Source: Cenarchaeum sp. (GTDB taxonomy: Archaea > Thermoproteota > Nitrososphaeria > Nitrososphaerales > Nitrosopumilaceae). From it: a DNA stretch of 64,000 nt. Location: positions 832,001-896,000 of the forward strand of contig OY843584.1 of the NCBI GenBank assembly GCA_963692915.1, in the 5' to 3' direction. The notes below the pieces were generated by a model. That model ran no database searches. It saw only the letters and a program-made list of their open reading frames with translations, and was not told the DNA's origin. A program made the translations under genes and the position numbers. Of the stretch, positions 11,377-12,232 are shown piece by piece; within the stretch, counting starts at the first letter, position 1, and each line of letters begins with the position of its first letter.

Positions 11377-12232
11377 ATGACGCGTCACGTGTGTGGCATA
11401 TCAGGCGGCAAGGACTCTAGCGCTCTGGCCGTCTACATGAGGGACAAGGTTCCGGACATGGAGTATTTCTTTTGTGACACTGGGGCAGAGCTGCCCGAGA
11501 CATATGCATACATCTCAAAGCTAGAGGTCGTCCTGGGCAAAAAGATCGCACGCCTCAACTCTAGTCGTGGGTTTGACCACTATTTCGAGGTCTTCAAGGG
11601 GTGCCTGCCGTCCCCGCAGATGAGATGGTGCACAAAGCTCCTAAAGATAAAGCCGCTAGAGGAGTGGCTCGGCGATGACGAGTCCGTGTCATATGTCGCA
11701 ATACGCGCTGATGAAAAGAACCGCAAGGGGCACGTCTCATCACGCCCAAACATAACAACACAGTACCCGTTCATTGACGATGACATTGACCTCGAGGGCG
11801 TAAACCGCATACTTGACGAGGCAGGCATTGGCCTGCCCGACTATTACAAGTGGCGCACGCGCTCTGGATGCTACTTTTGCTTTTTCCAGCGAAAGGCCGA
11901 GTGGGTTGGTCTTGCCCAAAACCACCCAGAACTCTTCAAGCAGGCCGTCGCCATCGAGAACAAGGTCCTAAAGGACGCCGGGGCCGGCGGTGACGCGTCA
12001 TTTGCGGATCACGCAATGGAGGGCAGGCAGTACACGTGGTCACAGGGCGAGACGCTCATACAGCTAGTTGGCCGAAAGGACCAAATCCTCGCAAGGCATA
12101 AAATGGCAATAGAGAGAGAGAGAGAGAGAGAGAGCTAATTCGCGCCTAAAAAACCTTCCGCTTGTTGACGTTTTAGCCGGGGCACTAGACGAAGAGGAGG
12201 ACACAAAGGCGTGTACCATGTGCCATTTGTGA
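11377..12232 (+). CDS. sspD: SspD/DndC-like PAPS-reductase-family protein; frameshifted in an (AG)12 tract (stop at 12138 as sequenced, natural C-terminus at 12232)
   Basis: SGGKDS PP-loop, DTGAELPETY, RWCT...KIKP, RSGCYFCFFQ; the +1 frame at 12134-12232 encodes ANSRLKNLPLVDVLAGALDEEEDTKACTMCHL*. Confidence 0.88.
12111..12134 (+). repeat. (AG)12 microsatellite inside sspD
   Basis: 24 nt of perfect AG repeat read directly. Confidence 0.97.

Follow-up and report, generated by a model that had tools for sequence, protein, structure and literature searches.

The sspD gene in the phosphorothioation (PT) locus of this marine archaeon is frameshifted by a perfect (AG)12 microsatellite, which separates the body of the SspD protein from a conserved C-terminal tail carrying two invariant cysteines. 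In the window, by which we mean the whole 64,000-nt stretch of DNA analysed, the tail is present in the +1 frame, and contigs from public sequencing runs have a geometry that calls for at least two tract lengths. We regard it as an even call whether the tract is a real polymorphic, hypermutable ON/OFF element of which the sequenced allele is the OFF form.

In the mechanism that we propose, a slippage-prone (AG)n repeat would have arisen recently in the charged linker before the cysteine tail of SspD. Replication would add or drop AG units and thereby shift the reading frame of the last ~30 codons. Full-length SspD, the ON state, would result from unit counts of 1 mod 3 (10, 13), and other counts, the sequenced 12 included, would yield an SspD without its two invariant cysteines that may be OFF or crippled. 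Several tract lengths in natural populations would amount to stochastic switching of PT, as in the methyltransferases of bacterial pathogens that are controlled by simple sequence repeats (SSRs). Such switching would presumably be reversible and frequent, and it may benefit the cell.

The AG tract and its reading frames

The features of the locus are collected in Table 1. The letters around the tract are ATGGCAAT(AG)12CTAA, and in longer context ...CATAAAATGGCAAT(AG)12CTAATTCGCGCC.... Frame 0 ends in ...HKMAIERERERES at its stop codon (the closing residues reading MAIERERERES), and the +1 frame translates to ANSRLKNLPLVDVLAGALDEEEDTKACTMCHL up to a TGA at 12230-12232, 9 nt from the ATG of the next gene at 12242. 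Every detail of the original prediction on this point, from the repeat itself and the sspD stop at 12138 to the 32 codons of the +1 frame and the 9-nt gap, holds on re-reading. So does its claim that unit counts of 1 mod 3 restore a single frame: when the sequence is re-read, 10 and 13 units fuse the two frames, 12 units give S and a stop, and 11 or 14 units give LIRA and a stop, so that one length in three is ON. The repeat is perfect, lies within the frame and has a unit length not divisible by 3; the ON and OFF frames are thus defined by the gain or loss of units. To our knowledge, a switch ~30 codons from the 3' end is unusual among known contingency genes, which speaks against one here.

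Table 1. Features of the sspD locus, with positions in the window
Feature	Position	Strand	Basis
PLD/HKD-like protein, divergent from sspD, candidate nuclease partner	10098..11078	-	weak Pfam match (PLDc_2, E 0.0061, 16.8 bits vs 27-bit cut-off); DrmC 5.3e-06
sspD frame-0 ORF, 253 aa, frameshift-truncated, ending IERERERES and stop	11377..12138	+	PADLOC and Pfam
(AG)12 microsatellite, frameshifts sspD	12111..12134	.	TRF 12.0 copies, 100% matches
SspD C-terminal tail in the +1 frame, 32 codons and TGA, acidic patch and CTMCHL	12134..12232	+	translation, homologs
SF2 helicase (ResIII/DEAD/Helicase_C), PbeA-helicase-like, first gene of low-GC cassette	12242..13852	+	Pfam ResIII 9e-24, Helicase_C 1.8e-13; PADLOC PbeA 2.2e-27
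GHKL (HATPase_c_3) ATPase, second gene of low-GC cassette	13846..15609	+	HATPase_c_3 9.8e-20; PADLOC MzaB 1.1e-13
sspA cysteine desulfurase, intact	15612..16880	+	PADLOC SspA 8.3e-128, profile 1-374 of 374
sspB (DUF4007), intact	16864..17868	+	PADLOC SspB 1.2e-87, profile 3-295 of 295; Pfam DUF4007 1.5e-77
sspC ATPase, intact	17865..21314	+	PADLOC SspC 8.1e-283, profile 1-1103 of 1104

The genome scanned is a single contig of 1,644,826 bp with 59.4% GC and an estimated completeness of 99.86%. Across it, dinucleotide repeats number 101 at five units, 12 at six, two at seven and one at eight, followed by (AG)12 at 12, with none between 8 and 12 units. The remaining repeats of at least six units (6-8) are all GC/CG. 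The tract is therefore a genome-wide outlier and not a product of chance. A minus-strand ORF at 12064-12489 also overlaps the tract and resembles a shadow of the plus-strand genes.

The missing tail is the conserved end of SspD

The identity of the gene is clear from profile searches. The ORF matches the PADLOC SspD profile PDLC02782 (E 7.3e-102) with residues 3-251 on profile positions 1-242 of 277, and Pfam PAPS_reduct (PF01507) at E 5.2e-11; rival PADLOC profiles are far weaker (BrxP 5.4e-10, DndC 4e-05). Residues 7-15 read GISGGKDSS, invariant in 32 of 32 aligned sequences, and we take SGGKDS to be the PP-loop nucleotide-binding motif. The sequenced allele falls short of a full-length SspD, as frame 0 stops at profile position 242, whereas the ortholog of G012, a genome of the same genus, fills positions 1-276. 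The ORF has 253 aa, against 275-307 aa in all 120 of the 120 homologs among the matches listed.

The CxxC motif and its acidic patch are encoded only in the +1 frame of the sequenced allele. Ten homologs inspected share the C-terminus ...NLPLxxVLxxALDxxxxxxxCxxC[HA][LI], and the tail of the window is 90% identical (E 4.9e-17) to residues 245-283 of the full-length homolog P0003. We sampled 151 genomes from the same family, of which 23 had a match and 14 a readable 3' end, and the tail is in frame in 14 of those 14. Neither tail cysteine, C278 or C281, varies in the alignment of 32 sequences (32/32), and C6, C33, C85, C165 and C168 are likewise invariant. This conservation in homologs of the family identifies the tail as the natural end of SspD, as had been proposed, and the sequenced allele lacks two invariant cysteines. 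The further proposal that this allele is OFF or impaired would fit the absence of a conserved tail; a truncated SspD would probably make no PT.

AlphaFold2 modelling of full-length P0003 from the 32-sequence alignment gave a mean pLDDT of 71.7, with residues 271-283 below 50, and given this low value a role of the CxxC as Fe-S or metal ligand is a candidate one. PAPS/APS reductases carry their catalytic cysteine on a mobile C-terminal tail with an ECGLH motif. SspD shares the Pfam superfamily PF01507 with them and likewise has a conserved cysteine on a short, probably flexible C-terminal tail; the low confidence of the modelled tail would fit a mobile element of this kind. Unlike those enzymes, SspD ends in CxxCH[LV] after an acidic patch, and the likeness is a putative one. 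According to the available text of PMC7188994, SspD is an ATP pyrophosphatase that binds the desulfurase SspA and is the proposed acceptor of its sulfur.

Two further searches concerned the same protein. The tail alone matched no PADLOC family even at E 10, which is uninformative because 32 aa are too short. A sequence search of the PDB returned one distant chain, 21fy_C 'PptA' (E 3.6e-08), over residues 16-197, which exclude the tail, and a literature search on PptA and phosphorothioate gave nothing relevant.

Selection on the tail and origin of the tract

The tail appears to be under constraint. Compared with G012, its dN/dS is 0.027 (27 codons, with 11 synonymous and two non-synonymous differences), and that of the SspD body is 0.058 (244 codons). 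By this measure the tail shows no relaxed selection or decay. The low tail dN/dS, together with the intact partner genes, suggests either that the shift is recent or that the tail is translated much of the time; the frameshift would in any case not be old.

None of the 14 orthologs with a readable 3' end, G012 included, contains an AG run; G012 reads AAMERSKGKRKNLPL at the tract site. The tract is common to one other lineage only among the homologs compared, that of P0003 (a 33-member cluster), at 92% identity the nearest protein in the database, which reads IERERERANSQLKNLPL in frame. Its IERERERANSQ implies 10 units if the codons are the same, a count deduced from the protein. Searches with a pattern of tract and flanks gave three matches in metagenomes, none of them SspD, and no match in genome contigs, a set from which near-identical records may be absent. 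Since the run is missing from the 14 orthologs and present only in P0003, it is in all likelihood a recent, lineage-specific expansion or insertion in a charged linker of variable length. Its confinement to one further lineage, with G012 and 13 other orthologs free of it, is also a point against a switch.

The repeat is still perfect in two lineages, those of the window and P0003, that differ at 19 of 243 SspD residues. Over the same body the tract-less G012 differs from the window at 10 of 243, and synonymous divergence from G012 (pS) is 0.60 in the tail vs 0.38 in the body. A body nearer to G012 and a tail more diverged at synonymous sites may hint at a recombination joint close to the tract.

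Tract lengths in public sequencing runs

Six public runs from three studies contain the stretch, and we examined the Logan contigs of four (X1, X4, X5 and X6). X1 and X4 come from one study, possibly including the source sample of the genome; for these two, tract lengths were deduced from the ends and depths of contigs, which are not reads and whose letters at 12100-12142 were masked. Adjacent contig pieces overlap by exactly 30 nt (11425-11454, 12012-12041) and so behave as k=31 unitigs.

In both X1 and X4, a 123-nt contig spans 12012-12099 plus 35 more letters and thus ends at 12134, with the left flank and 24 tract letters. A 1944-nt contig has 12143 at its position 33 and thus starts at 12111, with 24 tract letters and the right flank. 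Simulated k=31 graphs reproduce these ends exactly with the allele sets {12,13}, {12,14} and {12,13,14}; a single allele gives one unbroken unitig, and any allele below 12 shifts the breaks to 22 or 20 tract letters. The match indicates that X1 and X4 each hold 12 units and a longer allele, and none shorter.

Contig depths add to this. The two pieces have depths of 480 and 508 in X1; in X4 the left contig has 413 and the right 197. By conservation of flow, every 12-unit haplotype in X4 has to pass into the right-hand contig, which leaves at least ~216 of the 413 left-flank haplotypes with more than 12 units. We infer that about half or more of the X4 left-flank haplotypes are longer than 12 units and that part of these have a different right flank. 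The share of the longer allele in X4 is too large for stutter from a 12-unit allele. The same ends would be expected from a 13-unit major allele with ordinary one-unit contraction stutter to 12 in PCR or sequencing.

The other two runs are thin at this site. X5 has no contig over 12042-12193, at a depth of about 5-10. X6 has a 305-nt contig starting 20 tract letters before the right flank; we rejected a 10-unit allele as the cause, since two branches with a minimum of two reads each would need more than its depth of 2.2, and coverage drop-out is more likely. Taken over lineages and runs, tract length very probably differs between lineages and also within samples.

Alternative explanations of the 12-unit allele

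The alternative that survives best, though we consider it fairly unlikely, is a miscounted consensus: the true major allele would have 13 units, sspD would be intact, and the 12 would be an assembly or polishing error or stutter. The contig ends in X1 and X4 suit this, as they need a tract longer than 12 alongside 12, and so do the X4 depths, by which at least about half of the haplotypes are longer. If stutter by loss of one unit can always be seen at a depth of about 480x, a shortest length of 12 points to a 13-unit major allele. The strong purifying selection on the tail would fit an intact gene, and another gene of this genome is split at an A10 homopolymer, a typical site of long-read error. 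Yet 12 units were called in a finished one-contig genome, the contigs with left flank plus 24 letters and 24 letters plus right flank are present in two runs, and no contig break would be expected from 13 units alone in the absence of stutter. There is also no 11-unit signal in these data, whereas a 12-unit major allele should stutter by contraction more often than by expansion, which makes the longer allele unlikely to be an artefact of a 12-unit major.

It is unlikely that the locus is instead a recent and effectively permanent pseudogene, in which one slippage event killed sspD and the genes are heading to loss without functional switching. In its favour, a complete genome has the out-of-frame allele as its consensus, and defence genes are often broken in the family: G083 has its sspD in two pieces separated by about 1.6 kb, and in G012 a GmrSD-like gene is divided between two ORFs. 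SSRs would also break genes to no purpose in a genome that has no detectable MutS or NucS. Against such an ending, alleles of greater length are present in the same samples, the tail remains intact and under constraint, as do all partner genes, and a perfect repeat has persisted in two lineages with 19 of 243 SspD residues different.

That the truncated 253-aa SspD is still active, so that the frameshift has little phenotypic effect, seems very unlikely. The ORF keeps the PP-loop core and the CYFC motif and spans 242 of 277 profile positions, but the lost part carries two cysteines that never vary across the 32 sequences, is retained by all 14 orthologs and has a dN/dS of 0.027.

Least probable of all is recoding, by which the 12-unit allele would yield full-length SspD through +1 ribosomal frameshifting or slippage of RNA polymerase along the AG repeat: the tail frame has stayed open under constraint, and transcriptional slippage rescues homopolymer frameshifts in some endosymbionts, but inspection by eye noted no shift-prone heptamer or stimulatory element, the transcriptional slippage known to us acts on A/T homopolymers and not on dinucleotide repeats, and the in-frame relative P0003 needs no recoding.

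Of the phase-variable ON/OFF switch as first proposed, the tract, the frames and the conservation of the tail stand, and length variation is very probable; reversibility and loss of PT are putative properties.

Repeats and repair genes elsewhere in the genome

No match to MutS_V or NucS_C was found in the 99.86% complete genome, and control genomes did match; slippage products are thus probably left unrepaired. The genome contains 11 G/C runs of 14-26 nt. Of 61 family genomes sampled, 13 have runs of at least 14 G, among them four of four from this genus; the other 48 have none.

Several repeats lie at DNA-modification genes or beside giant ORFs. A G26 run is about 110 nt upstream of the first start codon of a type III Mod-like methyltransferase (E 1e-119). 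The gene of a type IIG restriction-methyltransferase falls into two frames, with the A10 run in their overlap; assembly error at the homopolymer could account for this break. Giant ORFs are neighboured by poly-G/C tracts of 17-19 nt. One frame, of 15.7 kb, has a G17 about 55 nt upstream; two others, of 9.2 kb and 8.9 kb, are preceded by C19 and C17 runs whose flanks are identical; and a 77-kb open frame contains a C19 within its 5' end. Such repeats are found with the surface-protein and modification-enzyme genes of Campylobacter, Helicobacter, Neisseria and Haemophilus.

It is possible, if doubtful, that these repeats form a pathogen-style 'phasome' in an ammonia-oxidising archaeal symbiont, randomly switching sspD, the type III Mod, the type IIG enzyme and giant surface proteins without detectable mismatch repair. 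If so, the AG tract would give the first example of a phosphorothioate epigenetic switch under SSR control (a 'PT phasevarion'), and the set would be among the first contingency loci documented in Archaea.

Relation to known phase-variable systems

The sspD tract resembles the phasevarions of type III mod and type I hsd genes in Haemophilus, Neisseria and Helicobacter. In both cases, an SSR lies within the coding region of a DNA-modifying enzyme of a defence system, slipped-strand changes would shift the frame ON or OFF, and the organism is host-associated and has no detectable mismatch repair. Phase variation of H. influenzae mod is described in the accessible part of PMC6435447, and phase-variable DNA methyltransferases more generally in those of PMC5909438 and PMC7383803. 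The sspD case differs in that the modification is backbone phosphorothioation and not base methylation, and in that an AG dinucleotide 30 codons before the 3' end removes a tail in the OFF frame and not most of the protein. Its host is a Nitrosopumilaceae-like archaeon, and switching here is a candidate property. A nearer likeness in position is the C-terminal switching by SSRs in Helicobacter canadensis, where, as far as the available text of PMC2823697 goes, a repeat near the 3' end alters the C-terminus and the product is kept; its tracts are homopolymeric and bacterial. The alternative frames of sspD end after one or four codons, so the outcome here is loss of the tail and not an alternative tail.

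We found no repeat-switched PT gene in the literature on PT, SspD, archaeal or Thaumarchaeota phase variation and contingency loci. In the part of it that was accessible, a 2018 review states that no SSRs were seen in dnd genes and that PT phase variation would need another mechanism (PMC6435447). SspD is mentioned only in passing, with no PT phase variation reported, in PMC8713573. PT genes are enriched in sponge-associated Thaumarchaeota, and homopolymers and phase variation go unmentioned in the sections available of the two studies (PMC7848895, PMC6790972). The tract looks like a known kind of switch, that of bacterial pathogens; new are the modification system and the group of organisms.

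This bears on several questions. If true, switching of sspD by a repeat would give PT heterogeneity a concrete genetic basis, and the range of SSR contingency loci would grow to include a PT system and Thaumarchaeota-type symbionts. PT modification is partial and heterogeneous between cells, and the cause is debated. A natural allele pair (12 vs 10 or 13 units) also offers a test of the function of the SspD cysteine tail, and the same alleles could show whether the helicase/GHKL/PLD module needs PT or is restrained by it.

Neighbouring genes and a candidate effector module

sspD lies on the same strand as sspA, sspB and sspC (15612-21314). As in the SspABCD-SspE and SspABCD-SspFGH systems, all four genes are present with strong profile matches. 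Unlike those systems, a low-GC SF2 helicase and a GHKL ATPase lie between sspD and sspA, a PLD-like gene lies upstream, and sspD is frameshifted. The helicase-GHKL cassette has a GC content of about 38%, against about 60% in its flanks, and the change is abrupt, falling at the sspD stop on one side and at the sspA start on the other. In G012, sspD, sspA, sspB and sspC are contiguous, and a related GHKL-helicase pair lies on the other side.

The set recurs in the family. Helicase homologs with 41-46% identity lie directly beside sspD in G028, G043, G061, G052 and G039, and copies of the PLD-like protein lie beside the G012 ssp locus (92% identical) and beside the sspD-helicase-GHKL genes of G028 (55%). 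The PLD-like protein is a candidate nuclease partner of the helicase and the GHKL ATPase. The recurrent set is plausibly a PT-linked restriction module, with PT dependence a putative property.

Comparison with described effectors shows both likeness and difference. PbeA is an HKD nuclease fused to an SF2 helicase in archaeal Dnd-linked systems, as described in the accessible portion of PMC10853773; the helicase here matches its positions 236-627 of 672, and a PLD/HKD-like gene adjoins. The helicase part alone matches, however, with the PLD-like domain on a separate gene. In contrast to the PbeA systems, a GHKL ATPase takes the place of the CxC ABC ATPase and DndE partners, and the link is to Ssp and not to Dnd; Pfam and PADLOC scans of nine ORFs returned no ABC ATPase or DndE. 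An assignment of the three genes to SspFGH was rejected, as SspF has a Walker A motif and SspH is FtsK-like in the text available of PMC8092258; the words helicase and histidine kinase are absent from that paper. The module thus matches neither SspE, SspFGH nor a complete PbeABCD, and helicase/GHKL partners may already be listed among the ssp neighbourhoods of PMC8092258 and PMC12914056.

The kind of effector matters for the OFF state. The original prediction had argued that an OFF allele would be tolerable beside a PT-activated effector such as SspE. No SspE-like effector is found near sspD: in PADLOC searches at E up to 0.01, none of nine flanking ORFs matched SspE (DUF262/DUF1524), SspF, SspG or SspH, models for the last three possibly not being in PADLOC, and the neighbours are instead the SF2 helicase, the GHKL ATPase and the PLD-like protein. 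With an adjacent effector of another kind, the argument for tolerance needs revising. The accessible sections of PMC8092258 describe SspE as harmless in the absence of PT and SspFGH as toxic in that state, with damage to host DNA that is not modified; whether the module here behaves like SspE or like SspFGH would decide the survival of OFF cells.

The frame of sspD may reach the cassette in another way as well. In the OFF frame, translation ends 104 nt before the helicase ATG, as against 9 nt in the ON frame, and, as a speculation, the larger gap might lower expression of the cassette too.

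Possible mosaic structure of sspD

The window sspD appears to combine segments with different closest relatives. Its body differs at 10 of 243 positions from that of the same-genus genome G012, which lacks the AG tract, and at 19 of 243 from the full-length homolog P0003. The AG tract and the adjoining ANSxL linker, by contrast, are common to P0003 only, and synonymous divergence from G012 (pS) is 0.60 in the tail versus 0.38 in the body. Together, these sequence comparisons suggest that recombination joined two sequences at the tract or close to it. In the assembled contigs of sequencing run X4, depth halves over the tract, from 413 on the left to 197 on the right, whereas in run X1 it is not halved (480 and 508). 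X4 probably contains a second abundant haplotype, sharing the same sspD up to the tract and differing beyond it.

The helicase and GHKL ATPase genes that follow form a cassette of ~38% GC, with a local minimum of 29%, between sspD upstream and sspABC downstream, both at ~60%. The cassette has sharp borders, one at the stop of sspD and the other at the start of sspA. Given this contrast and these borders, the cassette looks like a foreign insertion in the sspD-sspA spacer, which in G012 measures only 40 nt.

Repeats at other modification genes

Two further modification loci of the source genome (G000) carry simple repeats. At L027, a type IIG restriction-methyltransferase gene (PDLC03628) is split into two ORFs of 559 and 403 aa in different frames, which overlap at an A10 run. 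The split may mark a second modification gene broken by a repeat, or it may be an assembly error at the homopolymer. The adjoining HKD+Snf2 helicase gene contains a C15 run within its coding sequence, in frame, and a G21 run lies ~490 nt upstream of its start. At L028, a 26-nt G run stands ~110 nt before the first start codon of a type III Mod-like methyltransferase gene (PDLC03632 match, E 1e-119), and the run shares one stop-to-stop frame with the gene.

Across its 1.64 Mb, the genome has eleven homopolymer runs of G or C, each 14-26 nt long. A G17 run precedes a 15.7-kb ORF by ~55 nt. C19 and C17 runs that share identical flanking sequence precede ORFs of 9.2 kb and 8.9 kb, respectively, and a C19 run is located within a 77-kb open frame, at its 5' end. 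Of 61 family genomes, 13 contain G runs of at least 14 nt, and all four genomes of the source genus are among these 13. Searches of the source genome (99.86% complete) for MutS_V (PF00488) and NucS_C (PF01939) returned zero matches; control genomes matched.

Defence loci of relatives

Another family genome, G028 (loci L025 and L026), carries sspD, the helicase and GHKL in the window order, with a PLD-like gene alongside; sspABC is absent beside this set. A second sspD, accompanied by sspA and sspB, lies 28 kb from the first and adjoins a type III RM system. In L025, a C17 run separates a full-length GmrSD/SspE-like gene from its neighbour. Relatives have further broken defence genes. In G012, the GmrSD-like gene is divided into a DUF262 ORF and a DUF1524 ORF, and sspD of the family genome G083 matches in two pieces ~1.6 kb apart.

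Coordinates of loci, homopolymer runs and tandem repeats in the window, the source genome and relatives
Feature	Locus position	Genome position
sspD	window 11377-12232 (+1 tail included)	
X1 and X4 contigs	window 12012-14054	
Helicase + GHKL cassette	window 12242-15650	
12/24/51-nt units	window 31056-31353	
27/36-nt units, in 72%-GC stretch	window 32349-32494	
93-nt unit x2	window 53044-53225	
34-nt unit x2.6, perfect	window 62903-62990	
(CTCCGAG)x17.9, perfect	window 63444-63568	
Type IIG gene	L027 6500-9341	G000:C1:1525499-1528340
A10 run	L027 8150-8159	
Type III Mod-like gene	L028 1560-4107	G000:C1:277559-280106
G/C runs of 14-26 nt	all outside window	G000:C1 21144, 280081, 419733, 647452, 656965, 1122850, 1124573, 1126657, 1521639, 1523591, 1631617
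G028 locus	L025	G028:C1:584000-603000
C17 run	L025 14937-14953	
Broken GmrSD-like gene, G012	L024 4204-6027	
sspD in two pieces, G083		G083:C1:1830818-1833264
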